Below, piece by piece: positions 6,152 to 61,810 of a DNA stretch of 64,000 nt (the first letter of the stretch is position 1; each line of letters starts with the position of its first letter). Position numbers and translations under genes: made by a program. Source of the DNA: Eledone cirrhosa (lineage: Eukaryota); the NCBI GenBank assembly GCA_964016885.1, contig OZ024742.1, forward strand, positions 85,312,001 through 85,376,000, in the 5' to 3' direction. Under the pieces are notes generated by a model that did not search any database, was not told where the DNA came from, and saw only the letters and a list, made by a program, of their open reading frames with translations.

Positions 6152-6209
6152 TCAATAATAATAATTAATAATAATGATGATGATGATGATAATAATAATA
6201 ATAATGATG

Positions 6210-6260
<51 letters not shown>

Positions 6261-6279
6261 TAATAATATAATAATATAA
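6152..6279 (+). repeat. (AAT)n microsatellite with GAT variants; left end of the retroelement array
   Basis: Seen directly. Other spacers at 11146-11205, 14732-14761, 18700-18726, 21394-21444, 24168-24194, 43205-43241, 48281-48340, 54365-54388, 60398-60418 and 61415-61463. (ATT)n at 28972-28998, 33892-33978 and 36606-36620. Confidence 0.95.
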
Positions 6280-6444
6280 GGGAAGAAGACGCACGAGGTG
6301 ACGGAGGTCATGAAATCGCTCCCGTAAGTTTTGAATTTTTAACATATTTAAATCATTTGTGAAATAACAACTCTTAGTACAAATGCTACGTAAAGCACCC
6401 GGCTTGAGCCCCAAAAAATTCGGACCCAAAATATATTGTTATAA

Positions 6445-7107
6445 GGCTCAAATATTCAAATGTTCAACTTTGTATTGTACACTGTATATCCAAAAAAAAA
6501 ATGGCTATAAATGGAAGAAGAAGAACCCCCCCCCTCCTCTCCTCTGGCTACACTATATAGGACAGCTAAACTCACCAACACCAGAAACTAGATACACCGC
6601 CCACCCCATCATCTGTGTACACTAAACACAACAGCATTTTCACCTTCACCGCCACCGCTCACTACGGCCATCATTGCCACCGCTGTCCCATCACCGCCGC
6701 CACCACCCCCTGACTCCTTCACTGCTGCTGCCACCGCTACAGCACCATCACTACAGTAATACGGCTCAAATATTCAAATATTCAACTTTGTATTGTACAC
6801 TGTATATCCAAAAAAAAAAAAAAATAAATAAATAAAATAAAATGGCTATAAATGGAAGAAGAAGAACCCCCCCCCCCCCTCCTCTCCTCTGGCTACACTA
6901 TATAGGACAGCGAAACTCACCAACACCAGAAACTAGATACACCACCCACCCCATCATCTGTGTACACTGAACACAACAGCATTTTCACCTTCACCGCCAC
7001 CGCTCACTGCGGCCATCATTGCCACCGCTGTCCCATCACCGCCGCCACCACCCCCTGACTCCTTCACTGCTGCTGCCACCGCTACAGCACCATCACTACA
7101 GTAATAC
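6445..7107 (+). repeat. Tandem ~320-345-bp monomers in the R4 5' UTR (6445-6762, 6763-7107)
   Basis: Both units start GGCTCAAATATTCAAAT and end CAGTAATAC. The equivalent pair is at 33067-33388 / 33389-33712. Confidence 0.9.
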
Positions 7108-7678
7108 GGTCGCATCACCGCCACCGCTGCCTCGGTATCGACATCACCGCCACCACTGTCTCAGTATCGCCAACGCCGCTAGTCTCTGCTGGCTACCACT
7201 TCCACATTATAGAATTCCTACTACTAACAAAGAGGAAGGCATCAAAATATATAAATAGACTCAAAAGAAAAAAGAAAAAACAAACAACAAAAGCAGCACA
7301 GCAACAACAGTAAAAAACGAGAAAAACAGAGAAAGACAAAAACAAAAAAAGAAACCCCAAAAACGTAAAGAAAATAAGAATGAAGAGAGAAGCAGGCGGA
7401 CGGACAGAGAAGAGGGGGGGAAAAGTAAAACTTAAAAAACAAAAACTAAGTCGGACATTCGAATACTACATTACAATGAAACTTATGCTTATTCATTTTT
7501 GGGGCCCTTTCTGCCCGTGTGTTTGTTTGTTTATGTGTGTCCGTATACAGCGTGGTGATAATGCCACACAAGGGCCAAGTGGGATGGCGGATCCACAGAT
7601 GGCTATGTAAACATACATTCGCCAATCCTCGATAAGAGTGTTTAAATATCGAACATAAACAGTTCGAATAACGGTGAA

Positions 7679-10600
7679 ATGGAGACTAGAACGTCATGTG
7701 ACAGACTCTCACCCAACAGGTGCCCCCTGGCTCAGCAGCAGGAACCTGACTGTCAACGAAATACTGCTGATGTTGGAGGAAGAAGAAGAAGGAAAGGGGC
7801 CAGAACCAACTGGACGAAAGAATTGAATAGAACTGTTATGCAATGCTACCTGAAAAGTAACCCCAAGGAGAGGGGCTACAGGAGACGGATGCATAACATC
7901 TGGAACGAGATTGGTTTATTTAAATTAGATGAACAAAAATTGGCCGGGCAGGCTCGGGTAATAAGAACTAATGGGTGGATAAGCGAGCTGGAACTGGAGG
8001 AACTGAGCAGAGAGAATGGCTTGGAGATGGCGGGTGTAGTATGCCAGACAAGCGAGCCGGCGGGAAATGAAGGTGAGGAGGTCCTGAGAGCGAAGGAACC
8101 ACCCGAAGCAGACAATGATCTGAATACTGAGATAAATAATACCTGGAACAGAGATACGGCCACTGAGGAGATGAATGCTGACGGGCTAGGACAAGATTCG
8201 GTTGACATCCTAAATTTAGTGGTAGATGAGTTGAACAATGATAGTGGGAGACCTATGAACCTAAGATTTGTAGACAGGAAAAAGTTAAAAGAAACAACAG
8301 CTAAGGTAAACAAAGTCATCCCATACCTTGAGGCGAGGAGTCTTCACCAGTGCAACAATATCCTCAAAGCAACAGCAAATACGGTGAGGAAACTACTTGG
8401 TATAAAAGCGAGAGGAAACAACAGACAAGAAAGAGCAGAGCCGTGGTGGAAGAAGCGACTGAGTGGGCAAATCGGGGAAATGAGAAATGACATAGGAAAG
8501 CTTGAGTCACTACTGAATGGGACACTAAAAAACATAGGCACTAAAAATAGACTGGAAATAAAATACAAAACTAGGAGTAAAAAGCTAAATATTATCATAG
8601 AGGAATTGAAGCAACGCATTGTAGCAAAGAGTGCCAAAATCAGGCGATACGAGAACAGAGTCAGTCAGTATAAACAGAACCGCATGTTCGACAACAACCA
8701 GAAGATGCTGTTTGGACAGCTTGAGGGGAAAGAAAGAGGCACCGACTTGATCCCTGGGGCGGAACAAGCTAAAACATTCTGGAGAGGAATATGGGAGCAG
8801 GATGTTAGACACAATGCCCAGGCAGGGTGGATTGAGACAGTACAGAGGGAGATCGGTGAGCAGGCACAGCAACAGACTGATTTGAGTATCACAGTTGAAA
8901 CTCTTAAGGGGCAAGCCAAAAAACTAACCAACTGGAAATCACCAGGCCCAGATGGTGTGCAGGGGTATTGGATTAAACATTTAACATCCCTCCACCCGAA
9001 GCTGACGGCCATGTTCAATGACTGCTTGGTGTCGGGTGAGGTGCCAGAGTGGTTGACAAAAGGTACCACAGTTCTGATAATGAAAGACCAAATCAAGGGT
9101 AATGATGTCACCAACTATAGACCTATCACATGTCTGCCCGTAATGTGGAAACTGTTGACGAGCATTGTGTCTGAGGAAATCTACCATCACCTCCACACAA
9201 ACAACTTGTTGCCGGACGAACAGAAAGGATGCCGAAAGAAGTCACGTGGTACAAAGGACCAGTTGCTTATTGATAAGATGGTAATGGGGAATTGCAGGAG
9301 GAGACACACTGATCTTGCCATGGGATGGATAGACTACAGAAAGGCATTTGACATGGTGCCTCATTCCTGGATCACCAAAAGCCTGGAGATCTTCAGGGTG
9401 GCAGATAACATCAGACAGTTGCTGGGCAGGAGTATGGGGTCCTGGGAGACAGAGTTGACATCAACTGGAGTATCCTTGGGAAGCGTGAAGATCAAGAGAG
9501 GTATCTTCCAGGGAGATAGCCTGTCCCCTCTGTTGTTTGTCCTTGCCCTGATGCCCTTGACCATTATGCTGCGAAAAGTGAGAGCAGGATACAAGTTGGG
9601 AAGGGGAGAGCTTACCATCAATCACCTCCTCTTCATGGACGACCTTAAGCTCTTCGGGAAAAGTGAGAAGGAGTTGGATGTGCTTGTTGACACTGTCCGT
9701 ATTTTCAGCAGTGATATATGTATGCAGTTTGGTATTGGTAAATGTGGAGTCATTGTGATGAGGAGGGGTAGGTTGAGCAGAAGTAACGGGATCCAGATAC
9801 CAACAGGTGAGATGATAAAGGAAATTGACTCTGAGGAAGGATACAAGTATTTGGGCGTTCTGGAGGCTGATGGCATAAAGAACAAAAAAATGAAGGAATT
9901 GTTAAGAACTGAATACATTCGGAGAGTAAGGAGCGTATTGAAGTCACATCTGAACAGCAGAAATGCCATAAGCGCAGTAAATTCCCGAGCTGTGTCTATT
10001 ATTAGGTACAGTGCGGGAATTCTGAGATGGAATGTTGCTGAACAAAAAGAAATGGATAGGAAGACTAGGAAGCTATTGACTATCTACAACATGTTCCACA
10101 AGAGGAGTGATGTCGATAGACTCTACCTAAGGAGATCTGAGGGTGGAAGAGGTCTTATCAGCATAGAGGACTGTGTTCAGATGGAGAAAAACAACCTATA
10201 CAAATACGTGACCTATAGTAAGGAGCCAATGCTCAGAGCTGTACTGAAGGAGGGGACAGTAGGCCAGGGGATACCCAAGGAGGAAATAACATCAAGGAGG
10301 AAGAGCAGCCTTAAGGGAAAATCCCTTCATAGTACCTTCTTTGAGAAAACTGAATTTAGAGATCCACAGACATGGAACTGGTTGAGAAGAGGAGACCTCA
10401 AAAAGGCTACAGAAGGAATGCTAATGGCTGCGCAGGAGCAGGCCCTCAAAACGAAGTGGTTGAAGCACCATATCTACAAGGAGGAGGCTAGCCCACTGTG
10501 CAGGATCTGTGGAGAGAGAGAGGAGACTGTGGCTCACATTGTGTCCGAGTGTAAACACCTAGCCCAGACCCACTATAAGGGCTGGAGACACGATGTGATG

Positions 10601-11071
10601 GGCAGGGTGATCCACTGGCACCTGTGCAAAGTAAACAATCTACCACATTCTGAGAAATGGTATGAGCATAGGCCAGAGGCGGTGATGGAGAACAATCAGG
10701 TGAAGGTGCTGTGGGATTTTAGGATACAGACGGACAAAAAACTGGAACACAATAGACCTGACCTGGTGGTTGTGGACAAAGAAAAAAGATCGTGCCTGAT
10801 TGTGGATGTGGCCTGCCCGTTCGACACGAGAGTGCAAGAGAAGGAGAGGGAGAAAATTAACCGATACCAGGACCTAAAGTGGGAGGTGAAAAGGATTTGG
10901 AACTGCCATGAAGTCAAAGTGATCCCGATTGTCATAGGCGCACTGGGGACTATCTCCAAAGGTTTCCAGGGATGGTTAAAGAAAATCGGCCCCTTCACGC
11001 TTTTTGGAACGCTTCAAAAGGCATGCTTGCTTGGAACGGCAAGAACCCTCCGATACGTCCTGAATATCTGA
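7679..11071 (+). CDS. R4/Dong polyprotein: N-terminal helical domain, reverse transcriptase, CCHC zinc knuckle, restriction-like endonuclease
   Basis: KSPGPDG, NYRPITCL, DYRKAFD, QGDSLSPLLF, HLLFMDD, YKYLG, GGRGL; CRICGEREETVAHIVSEC; RHD; RPDLVVVD...DVACP...KINRY. Confidence 0.95.
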   Translation: METRTSCDRLSPNRCPLAQQQEPDCQRNTADVGGRRRRKGARTNWTKELNRTVMQCYLKSNPKERGYRRRMHNIWNEIGLFKLDEQKLAGQARVIRTNGWISELELEELSRENGLEMAGVVCQTSEPAGNEGEEVLRAKEPPEADNDLNTEINNTWNRDTATEEMNADGLGQDSVDILNLVVDELNNDSGRPMNLRFVDRKKLKETTAKVNKVIPYLEARSLHQCNNILKATANTVRKLLGIKARGNNRQERAEPWWKKRLSGQIGEMRNDIGKLESLLNGTLKNIGTKNRLEIKYKTRSKKLNIIIEELKQRIVAKSAKIRRYENRVSQYKQNRMFDNNQKMLFGQLEGKERGTDLIPGAEQAKTFWRGIWEQDVRHNAQAGWIETVQREIGEQAQQQTDLSITVETLKGQAKKLTNWKSPGPDGVQGYWIKHLTSLHPKLTAMFNDCLVSGEVPEWLTKGTTVLIMKDQIKGNDVTNYRPITCLPVMWKLLTSIVSEEIYHHLHTNNLLPDEQKGCRKKSRGTKDQLLIDKMVMGNCRRRHTDLAMGWIDYRKAFDMVPHSWITKSLEIFRVADNIRQLLGRSMGSWETELTSTGVSLGSVKIKRGIFQGDSLSPLLFVLALMPLTIMLRKVRAGYKLGRGELTINHLLFMDDLKLFGKSEKELDVLVDTVRIFSSDICMQFGIGKCGVIVMRRGRLSRSNGIQIPTGEMIKEIDSEEGYKYLGVLEADGIKNKKMKELLRTEYIRRVRSVLKSHLNSRNAISAVNSRAVSIIRYSAGILRWNVAEQKEMDRKTRKLLTIYNMFHKRSDVDRLYLRRSEGGRGLISIEDCVQMEKNNLYKYVTYSKEPMLRAVLKEGTVGQGIPKEEITSRRKSSLKGKSLHSTFFEKTEFRDPQTWNWLRRGDLKKATEGMLMAAQEQALKTKWLKHHIYKEEASPLCRICGEREETVAHIVSECKHLAQTHYKGWRHDVMGRVIHWHLCKVNNLPHSEKWYEHRPEAVMENNQVKVLWDFRIQTDKKLEHNRPDLVVVDKEKRSCLIVDVACPFDTRVQEKEREKINRYQDLKWEVKRIWNCHEVKVIPIVIGALGTISKGFQGWLKKIGPFTLFGTLQKACLLGTARTLRYVLNI

Positions 11072-11144
11072 GGCTGCAGGTAGTGGCTTGATATTCAATC
11101 CAACGGACTTTCCAGTTAACCAACATCAATGACTGAGATTCAAG

Positions 11145-11205
<61 letters not shown>

Positions 11206-14200
11206 TCGCCAATCCTCGATAAGAGTGTTTAAATATCGAACATAAACAGTTCGAATAACGGTGAAATGGAGACTAGAACGTCATGTGACAGACTCTCACC
11301 CAACAGGTGCCCCCTGGCTCAGCAGCAGGAACCTGACTGTCAACCAAATACTGCTGATGTTGGAGGAAGAAGAAGAAGGAAAGGGGCCAGAACCAACTGG
11401 ACGAAAGAATTGAATAGAACTGTTATGCAATGCTACCTGAAAAGTAACCCCAAGGAGAGGGGCTACAGGAGACGGATGCATAACATCTGGAACGAGATTG
11501 GTTTATTTAAATTAGATGAACAAAAATTGGCCGGGCAGGCTCGGGTAATAAGAACTAATGGGTGGATAAGCGAGCTGGAACTGGAGGAACTGAGCAGAGA
11601 GAATGGCTTGGAGATGGCGGGTGTAGTATGCCAGACAAGCGAGCCGGCGGGAAATGAAGGTGAGGAGGTCCTGAGAACGGAGGAACCACCCGAAGCAGAC
11701 AATGATCTGAATACTGAGATAAATAATACCTGGAACAGAGATACGGCCACTGAGGAGATGAATGCTGACGGGCTAGGACAAGATTCGGTTGACATCCTAA
11801 ATTTAGTGGTAGATGAATTGAACAATGATAGTGGGAGACCTATGAACCTAAGATTTGTAGACAGGAAAAAGTTAAAAGAAACAAGAGCTAAGGTAAACAA
11901 AGTCATCCCATACCTTGAGGCGAGGAGTCTTCACCAGTGCAACAATATCCTCAAAGCAACAGCAAATACGGTGAGGAAACTACTTGGTATAAAAGCGAGA
12001 GGAAACAACAGACAAGAAAGAGCAGAGCCGTGGTGGAAGAAGCGACTGAGTGGGCAAATCGGGGAAATGAGAAATGACATAGGAAAGCTTGAGTCACTAC
12101 TGAATGGGACACTAAAAAACATAGGCACTAAAAATAGACTGGAAATAAAATACAAAACTAGGAGTAAAAAGCTAAATATTATCATAGAGGAATTGAAGCA
12201 ACGCATTGTAGCAAAGAGTGCCAAAATCAGGCGATACGAGAACAGAGTCAGTCAGTATAAACAGAACCGCATGTTCGACAACAACCAGAAGATGCTGTTT
12301 GGACATCTTGAGGGGAAAGAAAGAGGCAACGACTTGATCCCTGGGGCGGAACAAGCTAAAACATTCTGGAGAGGAATATGGGAGCAGGATGTTAGACACA
12401 ATGCCCAGGCAGGGTGGATTGAGACAGTACAGAGGGAGATCGGTGAGCAGGCACAACAACAGACTGATTTGAGTATCACAGTTGAAACTCTTAAGGGGCA
12501 AGCCAAAAAACTAACCAACTGGAAATCACCAGGCCCAGATGGTGTGCAGGGTTATTGGATTAAACATTTAACATCCCTCCACCCGAAGCTGACGGCCATG
12601 TTCAATGACTGCTTGGTGTCGGGTGAGGTGCCAGAGTGGTTGACAAAAGGTACCACAGTTCTGATAATGAAAGACCGAATCAAGGGTAATGATGTTACCA
12701 ACTATAGACCTATCACATGTCTGCCCGTAATGTGGAAACTGTTGACGAGCATTGTGTCTGAGGAAATCTACCATCATCTCCACACAAACAACTTGTTACC
12801 GAACGAACTGAAAGGATGCCGAAAGAAGTCACGTGGTACAAAGGACCAGTTGCTTATTGATAAGATGGTAGTGGGGAATTGCAGGAGGAGACACACTGAT
12901 CTTGCCATGGGATGGATAGACTACAGAAAGGCATTTGACATGGTGCCTCATTCCTGGATCACCAAAAGCCTGGAGATCTTCAGGGTGGCAGATAATATCA
13001 GACAGTTGCTGGGCAGGAGTATGGGGTCCTGGGAGACAGAGTTGACATCAACTGGAGTATCCTTGGAAAGCGTGAAGATCAAGAGAGGTATCTTCCAGGG
13101 AGATAGCCTGTCCCCTCTTTTGTTTGTCCTTGCCCTGATGCCCTTGACCATTATGCTGCGAAAAGTGAGAGCAGGATACAAGTTGGGAAGGGGAGAGCTT
13201 ACCATCAATCACCTCCTCTTCATGGACGATCTTAAGCTTTTCGGGAATAGTGAGAAGGAGTTGGATGTGCTTGTTGACACTGTCCGTATTTTCAGCAGTG
13301 ATATATGTATGCAGTTTGGTATTGGTAAATGTGGAGTCATTGTGATGAAGAGGGGTAGGTTGAGCAGAGGTAACGGGATCCAGATACCAACAGGTGAGAT
13401 GATAAAGGAAATTGACTCTGAGGAAGGATACAAGTATTTGGGCGTTCTGGAGGCTGATGGCATAAAGAACAAAAAAATGAAGGAATTGTTAAGAACTGAA
13501 TACATTCGGAGAGTAAGGAGCGTATTGAAGTCACATCTGAACAGCAGAAATGCCATAAGGGCAGTAAATTCCCGAGCTGTGTCTATTATTAGGTACAGTG
13601 CGGGAATTCTGAGATGGAATGTTGCTGAACAAAAAGAAATGGATAGGAAGACTAGGAAGCTATTGACTATCTACAACATGTTCCACAAGAGGAGTGATGT
13701 CGATAGACTCTACCTAAGGAGATCTGAGGGTGGAAGAGGTCTTATCAGCATAGAGGACTGTGTTCAGATGGAGAAAAACAACCTATACAAATACGTGACC
13801 TATAGTAAGGAGCCAATGCTCAGAACTGTACTGAAGGAGGGGACAATAGGCCAGGGGATGTCCAAGGAGGAAATAACATCAAGGAGGAAGAGCAGCCTTA
13901 AGGGAAAATCCCTTCATAGTACCTTCTTTGAGAAAACTGAATTTAGAGATCCACAGACATGGAACTGGTTGAGAAGAGGAGACCTCAAAAAGGCTACAGA
14001 AGGAATGCTAATGGCTGCGCAGGAGCAGGCCCTCAAAACGAAGTGGTTGAAGCACCATATCTACAAGGAGGAGGCTAGCCCACTGTGCAGGATCTGTGGA
14101 GAGAGAGAGGAGACTGTGGCTCACATTGTGTCCGAGTGTAAACAGCTAGCCCAGACCCACTATAAGGGCTGGAGACACGATGTGATGGGCAGGGTGATCC

Positions 14201-14731
14201 ACTGGCACCTGTGCAAAGTAAACAATCTACCACATTCTGAGAAATGGTATGAGCATAGGCCAGAGGCGGTGATGGAGAACAGTCAGGTGAAGGTGCTGTG
14301 GGATTTTAGGATACAGACGGACAAAAAACTGGAACACAATAGACCTGACCTGGTGGTTGTGGACAAAGAAAAAAGATCGTGCCTGATTGTGGATGTGGCC
14401 TGCCCGTTCGACACGAGAGTGCAAGAGAAGGAGAGGGAGAAAATTAACCGATACCAGGACCTAAAGTGGGAGGTGAAAAGGATTTGGAACTGCCATGAAG
14501 TCAAAGTGATCCCGATTGTCATAGACGCACTGGGGACTATCTCCAAAGGTTTCCAGGGATGGTTAAAGAAAATCGGCCCCTTCACGCTTTTTGGAACGCT
14601 TCAAAAGGCATGCTTGCTTGGAACAGCAAGAACCTCCGATACGTCCTGAATATCTGAGGCTGCAGGTAGTGGCTTGATATTCAATCCAACGGACTTTCCA
14701 GTTAACCAACATCAATGACTGAGATTCAAGG
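11206..14731 (+). mobile_element. R4/Dong family A copy 2, 5'-truncated 60 bp upstream of the ATG
   Basis: Near-identical to copy 1 from 7619 onward. In direct tandem across (AAT)20. Confidence 0.93.
11266..14649 (+). CDS. R4/Dong polyprotein (1127 aa); a 1-bp deletion alters the last residues
   Basis: Same motifs as 7679-11071. AGAACCTCC versus AGAACCCTCC changes TLRYVLNI to TSDTS. Confidence 0.9.
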   Translation: METRTSCDRLSPNRCPLAQQQEPDCQPNTADVGGRRRRKGARTNWTKELNRTVMQCYLKSNPKERGYRRRMHNIWNEIGLFKLDEQKLAGQARVIRTNGWISELELEELSRENGLEMAGVVCQTSEPAGNEGEEVLRTEEPPEADNDLNTEINNTWNRDTATEEMNADGLGQDSVDILNLVVDELNNDSGRPMNLRFVDRKKLKETRAKVNKVIPYLEARSLHQCNNILKATANTVRKLLGIKARGNNRQERAEPWWKKRLSGQIGEMRNDIGKLESLLNGTLKNIGTKNRLEIKYKTRSKKLNIIIEELKQRIVAKSAKIRRYENRVSQYKQNRMFDNNQKMLFGHLEGKERGNDLIPGAEQAKTFWRGIWEQDVRHNAQAGWIETVQREIGEQAQQQTDLSITVETLKGQAKKLTNWKSPGPDGVQGYWIKHLTSLHPKLTAMFNDCLVSGEVPEWLTKGTTVLIMKDRIKGNDVTNYRPITCLPVMWKLLTSIVSEEIYHHLHTNNLLPNELKGCRKKSRGTKDQLLIDKMVVGNCRRRHTDLAMGWIDYRKAFDMVPHSWITKSLEIFRVADNIRQLLGRSMGSWETELTSTGVSLESVKIKRGIFQGDSLSPLLFVLALMPLTIMLRKVRAGYKLGRGELTINHLLFMDDLKLFGNSEKELDVLVDTVRIFSSDICMQFGIGKCGVIVMKRGRLSRGNGIQIPTGEMIKEIDSEEGYKYLGVLEADGIKNKKMKELLRTEYIRRVRSVLKSHLNSRNAIRAVNSRAVSIIRYSAGILRWNVAEQKEMDRKTRKLLTIYNMFHKRSDVDRLYLRRSEGGRGLISIEDCVQMEKNNLYKYVTYSKEPMLRTVLKEGTIGQGMSKEEITSRRKSSLKGKSLHSTFFEKTEFRDPQTWNWLRRGDLKKATEGMLMAAQEQALKTKWLKHHIYKEEASPLCRICGEREETVAHIVSECKQLAQTHYKGWRHDVMGRVIHWHLCKVNNLPHSEKWYEHRPEAVMENSQVKVLWDFRIQTDKKLEHNRPDLVVVDKEKRSCLIVDVACPFDTRVQEKEREKINRYQDLKWEVKRIWNCHEVKVIPIVIDALGTISKGFQGWLKKIGPFTLFGTLQKACLLGTARTSDTS

Positions 14732-21393: not shown

Positions 21394-21396
21394 AAC

Positions 21397-21446
<50 letters not shown>

Positions 21447-21447
<1 letters not shown>

Positions 21448-45376: not shown

Positions 45377-45384
45377 ATATATAT

Positions 45385-48280: not shown

Positions 48281-48288
48281 AATAAGAA

Positions 48289-48342
<54 letters not shown>

Positions 48343-48602
48343 TTTCTTTATTAACCACAAGGGTTTACATAAAGTAGACATTAAGGACAGTGCAGGACAA
48401 TGCAGGACGGTACAAATGGGCATTTCTGCGTGTAAAAAAACAAAAACAGAGGATGTAACAAAAATAACAATGAAAATAACAATGAAAAATTCCCCAATAG
48501 GGGGGAGACTTCGGAGGGACATTTGTGGAGAAAGCCCAGTAAAAAGCCACAATGACCCTGACCACCAAGGCAAGTGCCCTCTCCCAGTTTTCCACCTTTA
48601 GT

Positions 48603-52022: not shown

Positions 52023-52057
52023 GTTTAAAATAGAGTGGAAAAGATGGGAAAGACCAC

Positions 52058-54151
52058 TTACCGTACTTTTGGTAGAGGAGGGATGGTTTTTACATCCCTT
52101 TTCACTTGATCGTCTGGTGAAGGGACCGTTGAATCGTCCCTTCGGCTGGTCGTCGGCTCTTCTAAGAGAATGTCTGAATATACTCTTCGATTGATGGTTC
52201 CTCCTAGGTCCCTGAAATCACCAACTGCGTTGGGGAATTTCGTTTTAATGTTTGTGTATTGTTTCTGTGCTATTTTTAGCAGTCTTATGTTAGTTGGCGT
52301 TTTGATTGGTGCTGGTATTATGTAGTCCTGTTGTGAAATGTCTGTGTGTTCAATTATGTAAGTCATTAGTTTCTTGTTGTGTGTGTTTATTGCCGTGCAT
52401 TTGTTTTTCTGGGGGTGGGGTGTGGTTCTGCTATTTTCTTGTCGTTGTTGCTGGGTGTGTGTGTTTTGTTGTTGTGTTTGCGATGTTGGTGCTTGTGGTG
52501 GTGGTGTTGAAGGTGTTGTTGGCGGTGGGGTTGTCGCCGGTGGCGATGGTGGTGCTGGTGTGGGTGGTGATGGTGTTGGTGGTGTTGCTGCTGTGGGTCT
52601 CTTTGCAGTAGACCTTACCCTTTTCTCATTTCTTTCCTCCCTTTTCAAAGGCGACGATTCGCTGCTTCTGCGTTTGTGCCTTCTTGCGACCTTTTGCCAT
52701 CCCTCTCCCACCTCACACTCCATGTCTGATTCTGTAAGGTCGGGGAGGGGTACCAGCTCCACTCTTTCACTTGTTGTTGTTGGTGATGTTTGCACTGGAG
52801 TCTCTGTTGCAGCTGCATTTGGTATTGCTGTTGTTGTTGTTAATATTTCCACTGCTGCTGCTGTCTTTGATTTCCGTGGAGTGGGTATGGGTGCCACGGA
52901 CCTATCGTTCCTGGTTGCCGCTTGTCCTGTTGCTGGTAGCCGTGGAGCCGGATTCGGAAGGAGGGGGGTTTTCTCCTTTCTCAGGGTCTTCTCGTTGCAG
53001 AAGGCCCTGAGGTGAGTCTTCGATCCACAGCGAAAGCATTTCGGGCGTTTGCCCTCAACACTTATGGGCAGTTGAGTGCCGTTATCGAAGTCTATCACAT
53101 CCGGGATAGCTTCGATGCACTCCTGGTTGGTTTGGATTAGCATCTCAATGGAGGAGCCGACCCAATCTTCTCTTACTTTTTTCTGTACTTGCAGTACAGT
53201 TGTTTTGTCCTCGATTCCGACGAGGACAGACGCGGCCAGCCAAGAAGGGGTCATTCCGGGGGGGACGTGGGTCAGTTTGACCCTCACAATTTTTTGCCCG
53301 CAGTAGGAGGGCACCAACACCATTTCCTCGCTCCTTAGGGTCACTACTGATTGGGCCTTTGCCTCCTGGGGTGTGGCAAAAAGTACGTCTACGGTGGCGT
53401 ATTTTTTGCCTCGGGTGATGTGCGTTTTCCTCTGCCACACAGACCCCAAGGCTTTTTGTATTTGGGCCTCTGTGGCTCTTTCCACCCTACGGGATTTTGT
53501 ACTTACTGTACGGTACGTGACCGTACAGTGCTCTTGGGTCTCGAAAAACTTTTCCGCTGCCTTGCAGATTGCTCGGTGTCCGTTCTTTGTCACCATCTTC
53601 TTCGCTTCCTCTAATTCCTCATTTGTTATGAGGATTGTTTCCAAGTTTTTCGCAATACCTGCAAATGAGATTGGTTTTTCTCTGCTGTTGTTGTTGTCGT
53701 CAGAGCTGCTGGTACTTTTGTTGCTGCAGGTACTACGACTACTGCCTCCGCCGCTGTTGCTGTGGTTGTTGTTGGTGTTGCTGCTGCTAATGCTGTTGTT
53801 GTTTATGCTGCTGGTGATGCTGTTGCGGCTGCTACTGTTGTTTTCATTGTCACTGTTGCTGTTGTTATTACGGCTGCTACTGCTATTATTCCTGACGTCA
53901 GACGAATGAACTGGGTTTTCGTATTTCCCGCACACCTGTTTCGTCGCTGTCGTCGTCGTCGTGGAGAAACCTTGCACGCTTTGCACGAGACTTTTCTTTT
54001 CTTTCGTCGCTTGCGAAAGAGAAGGGAGGGAGAGAGACACATTTAAAGAAGGGAGGGAGAGAGACAATCTTCTCTCTGCTGTAGTGATGATTGAGGAAGA
54101 AGAAGACGGAATGAGTGGGAGTGACGTATGAAATTTCTTTTTGGTAGCCAT
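52058..54151 (-). CDS. Tx1 ORF1 (RRM-like region, CX2CX4HX4C knuckle, S/N- and P/T/Q-rich tracts)
   Basis: Open frame; first ATG at 54151 (MATKKK); CFRCGSKTHLRAFC. Confidence 0.88.
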   Translation of the reverse strand: MATKKKFHTSLPLIPSSSSSIITTAERRLSLSLPSLNVSLSLPSLSQATKEKKSLVQSVQGFSTTTTTATKQVCGKYENPVHSSDVRNNSSSSRNNNSNSDNENNSSSRNSITSSINNNSISSSNTNNNHSNSGGGSSRSTCSNKSTSSSDDNNNSREKPISFAGIAKNLETILITNEELEEAKKMVTKNGHRAICKAAEKFFETQEHCTVTYRTVSTKSRRVERATEAQIQKALGSVWQRKTHITRGKKYATVDVLFATPQEAKAQSVVTLRSEEMVLVPSYCGQKIVRVKLTHVPPGMTPSWLAASVLVGIEDKTTVLQVQKKVREDWVGSSIEMLIQTNQECIEAIPDVIDFDNGTQLPISVEGKRPKCFRCGSKTHLRAFCNEKTLRKEKTPLLPNPAPRLPATGQAATRNDRSVAPIPTPRKSKTAAAVEILTTTTAIPNAAATETPVQTSPTTTSERVELVPLPDLTESDMECEVGEGWQKVARRHKRRSSESSPLKREERNEKRVRSTAKRPTAATPPTPSPPTPAPPSPPATTPPPTTPSTPPPQAPTSQTQQQNTHTQQQRQENSRTTPHPQKNKCTAINTHNKKLMTYIIEHTDISQQDYIIPAPIKTPTNIRLLKIAQKQYTNIKTKFPNAVGDFRDLGGTINRRVYSDILLEEPTTSRRDDSTVPSPDDQVKRDVKTIPPLPKVR

Positions 54152-54650
54152 GTTTTTTTGTTTAAAATGAAATTTTGAGTACAAAACCCCAATAACTGGT
54201 TATTTAACCCCGAAGGGCCAAATAACGGACAGAAAGACCCCTCTCACGAGGAGGAGGGTGTCTTTATCAACAATTTGGTTCAAGTTTTAAACAATTTACA
54301 ATTGTTTTAACGGTTAAAAATTACTATACCTTACAGAGCCGAGCCTCCGTCAACCATGGCATTCAATAATAATAATAATAATAATAATGATTTCTTTATT
54401 AACCACAAGGGTTTACATAAAGTAGACATTAAGGACAGTGCAGGACAATGCAGGACGGTACAAATGGGCATTTCAGCGTGTAAAAAAACAAAAACAGAGG
54501 ATGTAACAAAAATAACAATGAAAATAACAATGAAAAATTCCCCAATAGGGGGGAGACTTCGGAGGGACATTTGTGGAGAAAGCCCAGTAAAAAGCCACAA
54601 TGACCCTGACCACCAAGGCAAGTGCCCTCTCCCAGTTTTCCACCTTTAGT

Positions 54651-57600
54651 TTACAGATATATACTCAGAGTCGGCCCATTCACTCGGGCCATTCTTGCTT
54701 CTCTCACCCATCTTTCAACAAAATGCTGGGAAGAGAGCACTTCCTTCTCTACTCTGATTTTCCTTTTCAAATGAAATTTGAAAAAGTCAATCAGAGCATC
54801 ACCGAAGAGGTAAGTGCTCGTCTTCAGCCCTTTCAAACGTGTCCACCATACTATCTCTTTCGCCATGGCCACCAGACAGATAAAAACTGCCTGCCCTTCC
54901 CGGCTAAAGGAGGAGGGCGGGGCAATCCTCACGATAGACTCAGATGATAGCTGGATCCGTCCTAAACGCGACAGCAGGTGTTCGACATAAACCCACAAGT
55001 CAGCAATTTTCGGACACTGGACGAGTGCGTGCAGGACGGTTTCGTCGCCCTGCGCGCATCTCGGACATGCCCGGCTGACGGCACCTCCATGCCTGTAGAG
55101 TTTATCCCGAACTGGCAAGGCTCCTCGGTAGCACTGCCAGGCCAGAGATTTCTGGAAGTTGTCCATAGGCCCCGGCCCGAAAGTTCTTCCGAAGAGATTG
55201 GCTAGTTGATTTTCGTCGACGCCTAGAGTTTCCCCAAGTACGTCGTCGCTCTTCCCCTCCACTAATCCTCTATAGAACGCCGAGGTGGAGTTTCCACCGA
55301 TCACATTGCCCGATTGGTCGAGGGCTGTGAGCGCCTGAAGACATTCCAGTCTCCAGGCGCTCCCTCTCGGTCTTCGCTTGACCCAGGACTGCAGCTCCGT
55401 CAAGGAAACGAGCTGGGGAAAAACGCGTCTAGCAAACGGCGACCACCCCTGATCACCGTCGAGGAAGAGGTGGAGATGTCGTAGCCTGAGCGCGTGCCTG
55501 CGCATCATCAGCCACGGCATGCCCAGCCCTCCACGTAGCGGGTGTTGACAACAGATGGACCGCCTGACCATCGGAGCACGTCCCTTCCACAAAAAGCGAA
55601 AGAGCAAACGCTCCAGCGCAGTCAGGCGAGGCTTAGGACAAGGTACGACGGTTAGGCGGTAGCAGATGACAGACGCGATGTACGCGTTAGCCACCTCCGC
55701 TCGACCTTTCAGGGATAGCTTCCTCTCCGCCCATTTCTGGGTGAGAGAAGCCACCCTGCTCGTCACCTCGTCCCAGTTTTTGTCCGTCTGGAGGTCCGGA
55801 CCGAACCAGACCCCTAGCAATTTAACCGGTCCGTCCGTCCAGCGCCCGACGACGCTGTTGGACGGCATGGACCTGCCTCTCCAGGTGCCGAGCTGCAGGC
55901 CCACTGACTTTTCCTGGTTGATCATTGCTCCTGTCACCGCTTCGTATTCTCTTAGTGTAGTGCCGATCGCCTCGATGTGTTTGGCGTTCGACACCACTAC
56001 GGTGACATCGTCCGCATATGCTGACACGGATCTTCCGCATCCTAGTTCGCGCGGGACTCCCCTCAACGTCTCCAGTTTGTGCAGTAATGGCTCGAGAGTC
56101 AATACGTACAAGAGGGACGAGAGGGGACATCCTTGGCGGACCGAGCGCATGATGTTGAACGGTTCCGACAGGTGACCGTTCACTCTCACCACAGAGCAGA
56201 TGTCGCTGTGCATGGCAGCGATCCAGCCTCTGAAGACGGGCCCAAAGCCAGCCGCCCTCAGGACTGCCGCTAGGTAACGATGGTCGACCCTATCGAAAGC
56301 TTTCGACTGATCTAAATTGATCAAGGACCCACCCGTGCCAGGTTCCCTAGCTACCCTCTCTACGATGTATCGCATGAGGTGGAGGTTGTCGTGGATGGAT
56401 CTGTCGGGAATGGCGCATGTCTGCGCCTCTCCCACCAGACCACCAACGACAAGCGCCAACCTCTTTGCTAGCACCTTGGCCAAAATCTTAAACTCTGTGT
56501 TTAGCAGAGTTATGGGCCGGAAATTGTCTATGTTATCCCCCTTGTTCGGATCCTTTCTCAGCAGTGCCACCGCTCCTCGGCTCACAGAACTGGGAATTCT
56601 CCCGTTCTGTTGCCAGTTGCAGTAGACATCCGCCAAGAGGCCTCCGAACAAGTCTGGCATCTGTACGTAAAGTTCATAGGGCAGACCATCCAAACCAGGC
56701 GATTTACCCCTTGTGCAGCCAGTCATTGCCTCCCGTACTTCAGCGGCTGTTATCGGCTTTTCGCAACACCTCGCCTCAGTGGCCGAGAGCCGCGGCAGTC
56801 CGTCGAGGTAGACACTAAAGTCCATCCCTCTACCCGGCCCCCCGCTGCCCCCGAACAGCTGAGCGAAGTGTCGCTGAAAAGCTTCACACATTTGCCCGGG
56901 ATCGAGTAGCATGCGCCCGTCGTGGTCCACCAAAGACCGGATCGTGGCTTTGTTGCCACGACGCGCCTCCGCCACTCGGGCCCATTGAACGGCTTTCGTC
57001 CCCTCGTGTCTGAGAGCACGCACCCTAGCTCTGACAACGCAGCCTTCGTGCTTTGCATTGAAGAATTGGTCAAGGGCCAATTTCGCCGCAAGCACGTCGG
57101 TCGCAATGCCTTTGCTAAGCGCCTCGTCTAATTTTCTAACTAGTTCTCCCTCTGCTCTATTTTTCTCTATTGCTAAAGCCTTACTAAACCTAATCGATTC
57201 TATTCTAATCGCTCTTTTCAGAGCAAACCACCACTTGTTGTTGACGATGGCCCCCGTCAACGCCCGCTTAACTAGTTCGCTAATCCGGTCTCTGTAGGCC
57301 TTGCGCGCTGGTAAGGACGCGTTTAGCTTCCAGTAGCCGGGTCCTCGTCTATGAAGCCTATCTAAGTCAAGCACACAGATCACGAATTTGTGGTCCGTGT
57401 AGCTGACTATCTTGAATTGTGGACAGCCTATGCTAGACCTATCTATTTCCCTACAAAATACTCTATCTAGATATGATCTGGATGACCCTATGCGGTTTGT
57501 CCAAGTCCACATTGGCACATTCGGGAAATCCAATCGGTACCTGTCAGACAGTTCAAAACGCCTGAGCAGGTTGGTGAGGCTCTTGCACCCTCCACCCCTA

Positions 57601-58070
57601 TCCGCTAATCCCACACAGTCCCAGCGTGCATCTAAGATCCCGTTCCAGTCGCCCACTAACACTAAAGAGCGGGACGTTCCAAGAAAGGTCTCCAGACGCC
57701 GGAAGAAATCAGGCCGCCCTGCTCCTGTCGGGGCATAGACGGCCACTAGCCTGAAAGCTTGCCCGTCTCCGCTGGTCACGTCCAGCACCACCAGCTTACC
57801 CTCTGGGTCCAGGAAGATGGCCCGTATGGCGAGATCCAAACCTCTCCGAAAAAGCACAGCAACTCCTCCACCCGATCCAGGACGGCTGGGAGATGCGTAC
57901 ACATCGTAGCCGCCGAAGATCGGTGCGAAGGCCCGTGCTTCGGAGATTCTGGTCTCGCTGATGGCCACTACATCTATGTTTAGTGACCTGAGGTCGTTGA
58001 GCAGGTGACCCTGCTTCCATGACGACCCCAAGCCACGCGCATTTATGCTGCCTATTCTGAGTGAGGTCAT
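54651..58070 (-). CDS. Tx1 ORF2, 1139 aa: apurinic-like endonuclease + reverse transcriptase + C-terminal Cys/His motif
   Basis: SINARGL, ISET, VYAP, GDWN, SYLDR, TDHK, YWKLN; KSPGLDGL, FRPITLLN, DQSKAFDRV, RQGCPLS, YADD, GGLG; CPRC...ETVLHALVQC. Confidence 0.95.
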   Translation of the reverse strand: MTSLRIGSINARGLGSSWKQGHLLNDLRSLNIDVVAISETRISEARAFAPIFGGYDVYASPSRPGSGGGVAVLFRRGLDLAIRAIFLDPEGKLVVLDVTSGDGQAFRLVAVYAPTGAGRPDFFRRLETFLGTSRSLVLVGDWNGILDARWDCVGLADRGGGCKSLTNLLRRFELSDRYRLDFPNVPMWTWTNRIGSSRSYLDRVFCREIDRSSIGCPQFKIVSYTDHKFVICVLDLDRLHRRGPGYWKLNASLPARKAYRDRISELVKRALTGAIVNNKWWFALKRAIRIESIRFSKALAIEKNRAEGELVRKLDEALSKGIATDVLAAKLALDQFFNAKHEGCVVRARVRALRHEGTKAVQWARVAEARRGNKATIRSLVDHDGRMLLDPGQMCEAFQRHFAQLFGGSGGPGRGMDFSVYLDGLPRLSATEARCCEKPITAAEVREAMTGCTRGKSPGLDGLPYELYVQMPDLFGGLLADVYCNWQQNGRIPSSVSRGAVALLRKDPNKGDNIDNFRPITLLNTEFKILAKVLAKRLALVVGGLVGEAQTCAIPDRSIHDNLHLMRYIVERVAREPGTGGSLINLDQSKAFDRVDHRYLAAVLRAAGFGPVFRGWIAAMHSDICSVVRVNGHLSEPFNIMRSVRQGCPLSSLLYVLTLEPLLHKLETLRGVPRELGCGRSVSAYADDVTVVVSNAKHIEAIGTTLREYEAVTGAMINQEKSVGLQLGTWRGRSMPSNSVVGRWTDGPVKLLGVWFGPDLQTDKNWDEVTSRVASLTQKWAERKLSLKGRAEVANAYIASVICYRLTVVPCPKPRLTALERLLFRFLWKGRAPMVRRSICCQHPLRGGLGMPWLMMRRHALRLRHLHLFLDGDQGWSPFARRVFPQLVSLTELQSWVKRRPRGSAWRLECLQALTALDQSGNVIGGNSTSAFYRGLVEGKSDDVLGETLGVDENQLANLFGRTFGPGPMDNFQKSLAWQCYRGALPVRDKLYRHGGAVSRACPRCAQGDETVLHALVQCPKIADLWVYVEHLLSRLGRIQLSSESIVRIAPPSSFSREGQAVFICLVAMAKEIVWWTRLKGLKTSTYLFGDALIDFFKFHLKRKIRVEKEVLSSQHFVERWVREARMARVNGPTLSIYL

Positions 58071-58105
58071 GTTTAAAATAGAGTGGAAAAGATGGGAAAG
58101 ACCAC

Positions 58106-60184
58106 TTACCGTACTTTTGGTAGAGGAGGGATGGTTTTTACATCCCTTTTCACTTGATCGTCTGGTGAAGGGTCCGTTGAATCGTCCCTTCGGCTGGTCG
58201 TCGTCTCTTCTAAGAGAATGTCTGAGTATACTCTTCGATTGATGGTTCCTCCTAGGTCCCTGAAATCACCAACTGCGTTGGGGAATTTCGTTTTAATGTT
58301 TGTGTATTGTTTCTGTGCTATTTTTAGCAGTCTTATGTTAGTTGGCGTTTTGATTGGTGCTGGTATTATGTAGTCCTGTTGTGAAATGTCTGTGTGTTCA
58401 ATTATGTAAGTCATTAGTTTCTTGTTGTGTGTATTTATTGCCGTGCATTTGTTTTTCTGGGGGTGGGGTGTGGTTCTACTATTTTCTTGTCGTTGTTGCT
58501 GGGTGTGTGTGTTTTGTTGTTGTGTTTGCGATGTTGGTGCTTGTGGTGGTGGTGTTAAATGTGTTGTTGGCGGTGGTGATGGTGGTGCTAGTGTGGGTGG
58601 TGATGGTGTTGGTGTTGTTGCTGCTGTGGGTCTCTTTGCAGTAGACTTTACCCTTTTCTCATTTCTTTCCTCCCTTTTCAAAGGCGACGATGCGCTGCTT
58701 CTGCGTTTGTGCCTTCTTACGACCTTTTGCCATCTCTCTCCCACCTCACACTCCATGTCTGATTCTGTGAGGTCGGGGAGGGGTACCAACTCCAATCTTT
58801 CACTTGTTGTTGTTGGTGATGTTTGCACTGGAGTCTCTGTTGCAGCTGCATTTGGTATTGCTGTTGTTGTTGTTAGTATTTCCACTGCTGCTGCTGTTTT
58901 TGATTTCCGTGGAGTGGGTATGGGTGCCACGGGCCTATCGTTCCTGGTTGCCGCTTGTCCTGTTGCTGGTAGCCGTGGAGCCGGATTCGGAAGGAGGGGG
59001 GTTTTCTCCTTTCTCAGGGTCTTCTCGTTGCAGAAGGCCCTGAGGTGAGTCTTCGATCCACAGCGAAAGCATTTCGGGCGTTTGCCCTCAACACTTATGG
59101 GCAGTTGAGTGCCGTTATCGAAGTCTATCACATCCGGGATAGCTTCGATGCACTCCTGGTTGGTTTGGATTAGCATCTCAATGGAGGAGCCGACCCAATC
59201 TTCTCTTACTTTTTTCTGTACTTGCAGTACAGTTGTTTTGTCCTCGATTCCGACGAGGACAGACGCGGCCAGCCAAGAAGGGGTTATTCCGGGGGGGACG
59301 TGGGTCAGTTTGACCCTCACAATTTTTTGCCCACAGTAGGAGGGCACCAACACCATTTCCTCGCTCCTTAGGGTCACTACTGATTGGGCCTTTGCCTCCT
59401 GGGGTGTGGCAAAAAGTACGTCTACGGTGGCATATTTTTTGCCTCGGGTGATGTGCGTTTTCCGCTGCCACACAGACCCCAAGGCTTTTTGTATTTGGGC
59501 CTCTGTGGCTCTTTCCACCCTACGGGATTTTGTACTTACTGTACGGTACGTGACCGTACAGTGCTCTTGGGTTTCGAAAAAATTTTTCGCTGCCTTGCAG
59601 ATTGCTCGGTGTCCGTTCTTTGTCACCATCTTCTTCGCTTCCTCTAATTCCTCATTTGTTATGAGGATTGTTTCCAAGTTTTTCGCAATACCTGCAAATG
59701 AGATTGGTTTTTCTCTGCTGTTGTTGTTGTCGTCAGAGCTGCTGGTACTTTTGTTGCTGCAGGTACTACGACTACTGCCTCCGCCGCTGTTGCTGTGGTT
59801 GTTGTTGGTGTTGCTGCTGCTAATGATGTTGTTGTTTATGCTGCTGGTGATGCTGTTGCGGCTGCTACTGTTGTTTTCATTGTCACTGTTGCTGTTGTTA
59901 TTACGGCTGCTACTGCTATTATTCCTGACGTCAGACGAATGAACTGGGTTTTCGTATTTCCCGCACACCTGTTTCGTCGCTGTCGTCGTCGTCGTGGAGA
60001 AACCTTGCACGCTTTGCACGAGACTTTTCTTTTCTTTCGTCGCTTGCGAAAGAGAAGGGAGGGAGAGAGACACATTTAAAGAAGGGAGGGAGAGAGACAA
60101 TCTTCTCTCTGCTGTAGTGATGATTGAGGAAGAAGAAGACGGAATGAGTGGGAGTGACGTATGAAATTTCTTTTTGGTAGCCAT
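58106..60184 (-). CDS. Tx1 ORF1
   Basis: Open frame; first ATG at 60184; CCHC knuckle; differs from the sister copy by a short in-frame indel in the Pro-rich tract. Confidence 0.88.
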   Translation of the reverse strand: MATKKKFHTSLPLIPSSSSSIITTAERRLSLSLPSLNVSLSLPSLSQATKEKKSLVQSVQGFSTTTTTATKQVCGKYENPVHSSDVRNNSSSSRNNNSNSDNENNSSSRNSITSSINNNIISSSNTNNNHSNSGGGSSRSTCSNKSTSSSDDNNNSREKPISFAGIAKNLETILITNEELEEAKKMVTKNGHRAICKAAKNFFETQEHCTVTYRTVSTKSRRVERATEAQIQKALGSVWQRKTHITRGKKYATVDVLFATPQEAKAQSVVTLRSEEMVLVPSYCGQKIVRVKLTHVPPGITPSWLAASVLVGIEDKTTVLQVQKKVREDWVGSSIEMLIQTNQECIEAIPDVIDFDNGTQLPISVEGKRPKCFRCGSKTHLRAFCNEKTLRKEKTPLLPNPAPRLPATGQAATRNDRPVAPIPTPRKSKTAAAVEILTTTTAIPNAAATETPVQTSPTTTSERLELVPLPDLTESDMECEVGERWQKVVRRHKRRSSASSPLKREERNEKRVKSTAKRPTAATTPTPSPPTLAPPSPPPTTHLTPPPQAPTSQTQQQNTHTQQQRQENSRTTPHPQKNKCTAINTHNKKLMTYIIEHTDISQQDYIIPAPIKTPTNIRLLKIAQKQYTNIKTKFPNAVGDFRDLGGTINRRVYSDILLEETTTSRRDDSTDPSPDDQVKRDVKTIPPLPKVR

Positions 60185-60418
60185 GTTTTTTTGTTTAAAA
60201 TGAAATTTTGGGTACAAAACCCCAATAACTGGTTATTTAACCCCGAAGGGCCAAATAACGGACAGAAAGACCCCTCTCACGAGGAGGAGGGTGTCTTTAT
60301 CAACAATTTGGTTCAAGTTTTAAACAATTTACAATTGTTTTAACGGTTAAAAATTACTATACCTTACAGAGCCGAGCCTCCGTCAACCATGGCATTCAAT
60401 AATAATAATAATAATAAT

Positions 60419-61413
60419 AGGTCTTATCAGCATAGAGGACTGTGTTCAGATGGAGAAAAACAACCTATACAAATACGTGATTGATAGTAAGGAGCCAATG
60501 CTCAGAACTGTACTGAAGGAGGGGACAGTAGGCCAGGGGATGTCCAAGGAGGAAATAACATGAAGGAGAAAGAGCAGCCTTCAGGGAAAATCCATTCATA
60601 GTACCTTCTTTGAGAAAACTGAATTTAGAGATCCACAGACATGGAACTGGTTGAGAAGAGGAGACCTCAAAAAGGCTACAGAATGAATGTTAATGGCTGC
60701 GCAGGAGCAGGCCCTCAAAACGAAGTGGTTGAAACACCATATTTACAAGGAGGAGGCTAGCCCACTGTGCAGGATCTGTGGAGAGAGAGAGGAGACTGTG
60801 GCTCACATTGTATCCGACTGTAAACACCTAGCCCAGACCCACTATAAGGGCTGGGGACATGATGTGATGGGCAGAGGGATCCACTGGCACATGTGCAAAG
60901 TAAACAATTTACCACCTTCTGAGAAATGGTATGAGCATAGGCCAGAGGCGGTGATGGAGAACGATCAGGTGAAGGTGCTGTGGGATTTTAGGATACAGAC
61001 GGACAAGAAACTGGAACACAATAGACCTGACCTGGTGGTTGTGGACAAAGAAAAAAGAGCGTGTCTGATTGTGGATGTGGCCTGCCCATTCCACAAGAGA
61101 GTGCAAGAGAAGAAGAGGGAGAAAATTAACCGATACCAAGACTTAAAGTGGGAGGTAAAAAGGATTTGGAACTGCCATGAAGTCAAAGTGATCCCGATTG
61201 TCATAGGCGCACTGGGGACTATCTCCAAAAGTTTCCAGGGATGGTTAAAGAAAATCGGCCCCTTCACGCTTTTTGGAACGCTTCAAAAGGCATGCTTGCT
61301 TGGAACAGCAAGAACCCTCCGATACGTCCTGAATATCTGAGGTTGCAGGTAGTGGCTTGATATTCATTACAACGGACTTTCCAGTTAACCAACATCAATG
61401 ACTGAGATTCAAG

Positions 61414-61414
<1 letters not shown>
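60419..61414 (+). mobile_element. ~1-kb 3' fragment of R4/Dong family A, with stops
   Basis: Starts at RGLISIEDC, contains the CCHC and RLE motifs and the 3' UTR, and has (AAT)n on both sides. Confidence 0.92.
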
Positions 61415-61449
<35 letters not shown>

Positions 61450-61539
61450 TAATAATAATAATAAATGTCTTCTAATCGATGTATCGTTGCACACATTCAG
61501 AATATATCTATCAATCGCATGGTGAAACTAAATATAGAT

Positions 61540-61810
61540 AACTAATCCTAACCCGAATTTGGATGATGGAAACCGAATCACTACCTATACTAGCAGGTGC
61601 TCTGGGAATAATAAACGACACCCAGACAGATATATAACCAAACGCCAAGGACGTAAAATAACATACCGTATACAGCAATAGAAATACTAGACTAGAATGT
61701 TACTCTTAATACAATAGAAACAAAACCACACAAGTACACACTGCACATATCAATGGCATAAAAAGCTGCGCTCAGTAGTGCAGGGACGATGCGCCATAAA
61801 TGTATGACTA
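61540..61810 (+). mobile_element. Very old 3' remnant of another R4/Dong-like family
   Basis: CTACCTATACTAGCAGGTGCTCTGGGAATAATA translates to LPILAGALGII (compare IPIVIGALGTI). Ends in TAATAATAAT. Confidence 0.5.

Follow-up and report, generated by a model that had tools for sequence, protein, structure and literature searches.

R1 and R2, two retrotransposons of the non-LTR type (LTR, long terminal repeat) equipped with an APE nuclease and a restriction-like endonuclease (RLE), respectively, share one multicopy target, the 28S ribosomal DNA (rDNA), at distinct fixed sites and in the same orientation. The 28S rDNA target of R1Bm is described in PMC1919474. At Bombyx telomeres, TRAS and SART insert into a single simple repeat, facing opposite ways, and build up arrays (PMC7265360, PMC10088271). 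Dong, of the R4 clade, is reported in (TAA)n from Bombyx, Anopheles, Biomphalaria, ostracods and cnidarians (PMC3812793, PMC7998251); in Octopus vulgaris, Dong-R4 is listed as recently active, with 1,129 insertions (PMC13282606). Kibi, Koshi and crocodilian families of the Tx1 clade are specific for microsatellites, namely (TC)n, (TTC)n and (TTCC)n/(TTTC)n (PMC4494074). The present analysis concerns a locus of the octopod Eledone cirrhosa, where a Dong/R4-type element (R4) and a Tx1-type element (Tx1) are packed around runs of AAT. The window, meaning the whole stretch of DNA analyzed, comprises 64,000 nucleotides (nt) of contig OZ024742.1, from position 85,312,001 to 85,376,000. Quite probably, these two unrelated, recently multiplied lineages share (AAT)n in antiparallel fashion, likely through priming nicks on opposite strands, and the nests grow by repeated insertion.

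Nothing basic separates this R4 from Dong: both feature a single open reading frame (ORF), reverse transcriptase (RT) plus restriction-like nuclease, and insertion into (TAA)n. What differs is that the arrays are used here by two or more Dong families together with an APE family of antiparallel orientation. Tx1 resembles Kibi, Koshi and the crocodilian families in being a two-ORF APE element with microsatellite specificity; its target, in contrast, is (ATT)n, with TTC in few copies only, and its host is a mollusc, the comparison being one of targets. As for TRAS and SART, two families use one simple repeat in opposite orientation; both of those, however, are R1-clade APE elements at telomeres, while here RLE and APE classes use about 26,000 dispersed microsatellites, and the locus, internal to a 379-Mb contig, combines an AAT target with RLE plus Tx1-type proteins. 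Insertion of R1 or R2, unlike what is proposed here, does not regenerate the target.

Dong in (TAA)n, molluscs included, microsatellite-targeting Tx1 elements and antiparallel sharing of one repeat, as in TRAS/SART, are already known. The ATT target for Tx1 and the antiparallel RLE/APE pairing appear to be new: no ATT-specific Tx1, Dong/Tx1 antiparallel nest or Tx1 partner for an octopus short interspersed element (SINE) was found in the literature searched, which did not extend to Repbase and the supplements of PMC4494074, where further targets may be listed. The Tx1 clade thus gains a likely new target, (ATT)n; over 1,500 copies retain the 5' end and at least one has both frames open. A pair of unrelated nucleases on one triplet duplex also offers a simple substrate for comparing the strand choice of APE and RLE enzymes.

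Orientation of the elements in the window

Self-comparison and protein searches of the window yield two element types. There are eight clear R4/Dong copies (left ends at 6277, 11204, 18727, 21439, 28999, 33975, 43240 and 60416) and five Tx1 copies (14762, 24195, 37274, 48341, 54389), and both counts given by a sequence-only reading are thus right. That reading had also stated that every R4 3' end that is present runs into AAT on the sense strand and every Tx1 3' end into ATT. This holds for R4: the copy at 43240 lacks the end, and the tails of the other seven lead, on the sense strand, into AAT or AAC. All five Tx1 tails run into ATT, and ATT|G is the junction at the four full-length 5' ends. 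R4/Tx1 pairs are found where they had been claimed, tail-to-tail around 14750 and 24180 and head-to-head around 18710 and 60410; a further head-to-head pair lies around 43210.

Junctions across the genome

What the window shows is a pattern found throughout the genome, of which this locus is a large instance. Exact end motifs, which leave aside copies with an inexact motif, were counted in the 3.0-Gb assembly: 4,099 R4 3' ends, 439 R4 5' ends, 3,457 Tx1 3' ends and 1,577 Tx1 5' ends. AAT or AAC follows each of the first 30 R4 3' ends of contig C1, and in nine of them the run leads straight on to an antisense Tx1 3' end. Because tails alone might be element-borne, the real test is offered by the 5' junctions. 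(AAT)n precedes 29 of the first 30 R4 5' ends, in three cases via a short (AAG)n stretch. Tx1 5' ends are preceded by (ATT)3 in 1,539 of 1,577 cases and by (AAT)2 in none, against a chance level, for (ATT)3, of 116 in 799,280 background positions; the figure exceeds the 20% of flanks by which PMC4494074 defines sequence specificity. Upstream ATT is present in all 79 full-length Tx1 copies for which both ends are available. The use of the same repeat in opposite directions by the two families, deduced in the sequence-only reading from the window, is therefore found genome-wide, at 5' junctions as well as at 3' tails.

The sole R4 5' end of the 30 outside arrays (L097) lies within R4 coding sequence, after one TAAT. 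A few Tx1 copies are found at ATT/CTT borders (L052, L066). A scan of metagenome contigs for related loci confirmed none.

5'-truncated copies were counted leaving aside internally deleted ones (28 Tx1, 2 R4, 1 R4b). AAT lies upstream of 53 of the 67 truncated R4, ATT of one, and neither of 13; for the 22 truncated R4b, the figures are 19 with AAT and 3 with none. For the 31 truncated Tx1, ATT is found in 17 (two doubtful: L151, L168), no array in 13 and AAT in one, at the edge of a flipped block of the window. Two ATT units within 27 nt occur at 1,204 of 29,600 background positions (4.1%). The excess of truncated Tx1 following ATT over this background argues that array targeting by Tx1 is real, though its truncated junctions are looser than those of R4. 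In two truncated R4 copies (L030, L099) the first 20–30 nt are tandemly duplicated at the 5' junction.

Arrays as starting point

A census of 310 arrays, corresponding to 620 flanks, was drawn from the window and 220 loci, mostly picked by element ends. R4-group flanks are sense in 230 cases and antisense in 3; Tx1-group flanks are antisense in 217 and sense in 5. SINEs account for 11 flanks, and 154 of the 620 are unassigned.

The pattern V(AAT)8 has 26,354 matches in the genome. An element-blind sample was obtained from 90 of the first 100 matches listed, in which 100 arrays of at least 8 units were scored; it covers the first 25 Mb of one contig, and the non-T required before the run may favor element ends. 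In this sample 78 of the 100 arrays touch R4 or Tx1, and 83 when SINEs are counted: a warning that most long AAT microsatellites here are retrotransposon junctions. Directions are as predicted, with R4 sense in 66 of 66 cases, Tx1 antisense in 48 of 50 and the SINE antisense in 12 of 13; the two Tx1 exceptions are low-complexity AAC matches.

Gaps of 7 kb or less separate listed arrays in 35 of 99 cases, against 2.7 expected, and the largest clusters of the blind stretch feature five arrays across 15–23 kb. Since short gaps exceed expectation, nests are common in the genome; that of the window is the largest among those observed. A concrete cause is thereby offered for the clustering of transposable elements (TEs) in octopods; PMC13282606 reports hotspots there, and activity of Dong-R4 and L1-Tx1, without target analysis.

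Two other repeats carry AAT runs. A short element recurring in seven loci (L269, L271, L281, L288, L296, L299, L306) features AC/AT repeats around a central (AAT)n, and its array is used by R4 and Tx1 (L009, L040). A second repeat, with fixed flanks around (AAT)n (L160:5054, L160:8379, L274:1501, L289:1001; tandem in L160), receives R4 insertions (L017, L094, L165).

The R4, Tx1 and SINE sequences

R4 is a single long ORF, a 1141-aa frame matching RVT_1 (E 5.5e-23), with (TAA)n at both ends of the element. In its C-terminal part a CCHC finger and the PD-(D/E)xK motifs of a restriction-like nuclease are conserved across an alignment of 12 sequences, and a second stretch aligns to the R2 nuclease. 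Pfam matches to restriction endonucleases are weak (E 0.09–0.12), and no APE domain (Exo_endo_phos) was found in the protein. Single RT ORF, finger, RLE nuclease without APE and (TAA)n ends are features of Dong/R4; the close homologs of the protein bear no family names. In the N-terminal part, where the clade has a Myb/SANT-like domain without zinc fingers, residues ~55–120 form a conserved, W-containing block, for which Pfam gives no match. The ~1.4-kb 5' untranslated region (UTR) holds a tandem duplication of 322–350 nt (6438–7109 and 33065–33719 of the window). An HDV (hepatitis delta virus)-like ribozyme at the 5' end has been shown for Bombyx Dong (PMC3774820); at the R4 5' end there is no Rfam match for one, nor support from folding or a crude descriptor.

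Tx1 features an ORF1 with a zinc knuckle and an ORF2 with APE, RT and a C-terminal finger. ORF2 scores 311 bits to a coral protein automatically named 'Transposon TX1 149 kDa', 181 to human L1 ORF2 and 79 to R2; its nearest named relatives are from Argonauta hians, with 60–67% identity over partial proteins, in keeping with an octopod host. The window (14762–18699, 37274–43207, 54389–60397) and L146, L153 and L188 hold three subfamilies that differ in ORF1 and in the 5' end, yet all have the ATT|G junction. Two of the three are 95% identical in the ORF2/3' half; shared 3' halves with differing 5' ends suggest a swap of ORF1 and 5' UTR between these two. The 5' UTR of the second subfamily (18514–18550, minus strand) contains a motif similar to the 3' end of Tx1 and the SINE, with a few ATT units after it, and ten such matches are found among the loci. 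At C1:55423669-55455624 and C1:114792131-114810533, four to five Tx1 copies succeed one another head-to-tail, spaced ~6 kb. In the limpet Patella caerulea, eleven near-consecutive gene models on one contig (SNE40_003393-003415, cluster P0211) encode a Tx1-type ORF2 of 30% identity and probably represent a target-specific family arranged in tandem.

The SINE, 187 nt long and with at least 134,138 copies, shows Tx1-type polarity. Its 3' end is like that of an old Tx1 subfamily at 22 of 31 nt, a value reached in 1 of 1,000 shuffles (966 of 1,000 for R4). SINE–LINE (long interspersed element) pairs with a common 3' end are an established principle (PMC3747384); a term search of that review returned no octopus or mollusc pair. 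Here too the SINE shares its last ~30 nt and the target signature with a LINE, the difference being that the partner would be Tx1. A- and B-box-like motifs, of the kind found in the tRNA-related head of tRNA-derived SINEs, are seen by eye, and neither ARAGORN nor Rfam gives a tRNA match. OK, OR1 and OR2 are SINEs already described from octopus.

Near-full SINE copies lie outside arrays in 32 of 39 cases. Duplications of at least 9 nt flank 25 of these 32 (6.1 on shuffled pairing), and duplications of at least 12 nt flank 19 (0.6 on shuffled pairing, maximum 3); some of these lengths may include a few nt that belong to the SINE head. ATTA starts 19 of the 25 duplications. Truncated Tx1 copies inserted in impure repeats (L041, L213, L317) feature duplications of 11–18 nt, again with ATT first. 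From these duplications, on the SINE and on the three Tx1 copies, the first nick of Tx1 may be placed, likely, just after TAAT.

Target cleavage and growth of the nests

In target-primed reverse transcription the priming nick falls on the strand opposite to the element's sense. Because of this model and of the orientations found, the restriction-like nuclease of Dong/R4 would nick the ATT-reading strand, and the Tx1 APE nuclease the AAT-reading strand, at the TAAT site predicted above. The R4 tail may then be copied from its own RNA: AAC is found within 15 nt in 42 of 52 R4 3' tails and in 1 of 31 upstream arrays, a difference which points to an RNA-copied tail. Tx1 would add 10–20 nt of duplicated target, as judged from three informative truncated copies and from the SINE. 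One target would become two at each insertion, and nests would extend by repeated insertion of either family. The Tx1 machinery may also mobilize the SINE, with its 134,000 copies, so that a candidate driver is named for this very abundant sequence.

The sequence-only reading had proposed that each insertion supplies fresh target for both families. The tail composition bears this out for R4. For Tx1, what is found is that arrays persist on both sides: around 41 full-length copies, the medians are 9 and 11 pure units on the two sides, and an ATT tail is reached in 37 of 40 further copies. The several age classes it had noticed are present: identity to the nearest relative, among the loci compared, goes from 99.9% to ~92%, with one fragment at 78%. 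Such a spread among the window copies agrees with insertions made over an extended period.

Several observations weigh against the shared, antiparallel use of arrays just described. Polarity across the window is broken by the flipped block 28958–36621. No array is present at the 5' junction of 13 of the 31 truncated Tx1 and 13 of the 67 truncated R4. Of the full-length Tx1 copies, 13 have an impure array downstream, and none of these repeats the impurity upstream, so that full-length copies show no visible target duplication. The SINE is mostly outside arrays (32 of 39), whereas Tx1 prefers long ones; and its partner may be a different LINE, given how short the 3' likeness is (22 of 31 nt). 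A hypothetical (AUU)n leader at the 5' end of the LINE RNA would reconcile both the missing duplications and the difference between SINE and Tx1.

Such a leader also figures in an explanation where Dong alone targets arrays, while for Tx1 any short ATT(A) would serve as cutting site and (ATT)n would arrive with the element at both ends, as 3' tail and as read-through 5' leader; Dong would then colonize these repeats, and polarity would be fixed passively. The SINE with a Tx1-like 3' end, inserting at short ATTA sites outside arrays, fits this scheme, as do the lack of upstream ATT at 13 of 31 truncated Tx1, the absence of duplicated downstream impurities (0 of 13 full-length copies) and the perfectly phased ATT|G junction, expected if a leader anneals to the target. 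Truncated Tx1, however, cannot carry a leader, yet 17 of 31 follow ATT against the 4.1% background. Upstream of Tx1, array length ranges over 1–27 units, and in many cases the array is the one at an R4 head or forms the tail of a SINE or of a second Tx1; inspection by eye of 41 copies revealed no outer duplications around array–Tx1–array units. Leader and array targeting, moreover, are not mutually exclusive, and targeting by Dong alone is judged unlikely. Loose insertion by both families, with mere survival in AT-rich, low-recombination regions and arrays grown later from tails, has in its favor that R4 tails are partly element-borne and that microsatellite-seeding tails are known from other LINEs (PMC3812793). 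Yet 5' junctions, truncated ones included, adjoin arrays whose polarity is as expected and, in the case of Tx1, whose phase is exact, and the 100 kb to the left and to the right of the window contain just old fragments (65–74%) and no young copy: this explanation is extremely improbable. The nest might also stem from faulty assembly or from segmental duplication at the locus, given that neighbors are near-identical (two Tx1 at 99.1%, R4 copies at 99%), that the flipped block could be a mis-join and that read contigs and RAD reads, in pieces below 1 kb with repeats cut, do not reach across it. The copies nevertheless vary in where they are truncated, in subfamily and in divergence, the two tandem Tx1 are distinguished by a stop and by indels, and identical junction types are found at hundreds of other loci, which leaves an artefactual origin very improbable in comparison with serial insertion.

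R4/Tx1 fusions without an intervening array call for a separate comment. Across all loci, ten are head-to-head, most with an overlap of 0–6 nt, and one is tail-to-tail, whereas intact pairs in the blind sample are 12 head-to-head and 10 tail-to-tail. The plain reading is deletion of the target during 5' joining, as described for R2 (PMC3774820). Simultaneous twin priming is not favored as their usual cause: in several fusions the two halves differ in identity to the nearest relative (for example 97.2 and 93.3 in L157, 98.2 and 95.2 in L168). A contrast of 7/60 to 0/40 (p 0.04), considered as support for twin priming, is confounded by copy age, and deletion during 5' joining accounts for the fusions equally. 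A tentative and rather unlikely extension couples the two lineages: the second-strand cut of one would leave exactly the primer end of the other, so that Dong and Tx1 could prime from the two strands of one array and fuse head to head, while the Tx1 enzyme would spread the SINE and new arrays would arise from its tails and ATTA duplications. It is weakened because several fusion pairs have unequal ages. If true, most long AAT repeats in octopod genomes, and many of their TE hotspots, would be shaped by a target ecosystem that spans two clades and feeds itself.

Organization of the window

Under serial insertion by the two families, the window would be a large two-part nest, later modified by one inversion and some deletions. 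The 55-kb array of the sequence-only reading (elements as drawn occupy 52,283 of its 55,666 bases) is better described as two nests, 6152–45374 (39 kb) and 48281–61817 (13.5 kb), because the 2.7 kb between them (45375–48099) are other DNA, AT-rich (30% GC) and with no element match. AAT runs join most of the elements, as had been claimed, with the exception of this gap, the flipped block and the array-less fusions; the same block and fusions make the term "strict" an overstatement for a polarity which, as such, is opposite between R4 and Tx1.

The first nest opens with a degenerate (AAT)n array (6154–6276, plus strand), followed on the same strand by a full-length R4 (6277–11145), whose open 1141-aa frame (7646–11071) includes RT, CCHC finger and PD..D nuclease motif, and by a 99% identical R4 devoid of most of the 5' UTR, with an AATAAC-type tail (11204–14731). 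The minus-strand Tx1 at 14762–18699, tail-to-tail with the latter and head-to-head with its right neighbor, belongs to the second subfamily, with its own 5' end and ORF1 (57% at the amino acid level), and has an internal deletion. Two plus-strand, 5'-truncated copies come next: a member of a distant second Dong/R4 family, with 31–39% amino acid identity to the first (18727–21396), and an R4 of 99.5% identity (21439–24167). A decayed Tx1 (24195–28957, minus; 89%) lost its 5' part at a fusion junction.

The flipped block (28958–36621, minus) consists of a short R4 remnant, (ATT)n, a full-length R4 with an open 1141-aa frame (28999–33890), (ATT)n, a truncated R4 (33975–36603) and (TTA)6. Its arrays read ATT on the plus strand and its R4 copies lie on the minus, so that inside the block each R4 still has the expected polarity with respect to its array; the two edges depart from the rule. 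At the left edge the truncated Tx1 is joined to an R4 remnant of ~18 nt; at the right edge a wrong-polarity array is followed by an old R4 5' UTR fragment (36622–37240, plus), alignable only at 36650–36869 (69%). The block is likely an inversion with deletions, although it could be a mis-join. The 20 nt at 28952–28971 were considered as the 3' end of a new family and rejected, being an internal R4 remnant.

The nest continues with a full-length but decayed Tx1 of the third subfamily (37274–43207, minus; 76% to the young one), whose 5' end is ATT|G, and closes with an older R4 (43240–45374, plus; 84%), which lost its 3' part.

Beyond the gap, the second nest is preceded by a decayed SINE piece of Tx1-type polarity, adjoining an AAT array (48100–48286, minus). 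It features two young full-length Tx1 on the minus strand: one (48341–54364) with a single in-frame stop in ORF2, around 50811, the other (54389–60397) with ORF1 (58106–60232, CCHC knuckle) and ORF2 (54651–58265, with APE, RT and zf-RVT) both open. A 5'-truncated R4 (60416–61414, plus; 96%) stands head-to-head with the latter. A fragment of 344 nt with AAT runs on both sides (61465–61808, plus) is tentatively assigned to a Dong-like 3' end by a motif, seen by eye, similar to the RLE C-terminus; it has no blastx or locus match.

SINEs had been described as part of the nest: one piece, that at 48100–48286, is within the span, while the second (63478–63608) lies outside. The latter is a 5'-truncated copy on the minus strand, whose unit (63460–63626) includes an exact 18-nt target duplication (63460–63477 and 63609–63626) with ATTA first on the SINE strand. 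No Rfam family was found in the window. To the left of the nest, at 1083–2841, several inverted repeats similar to miniature inverted-repeat transposable elements (MITEs) are present, 80–215 nt long and with 93–97% identity.

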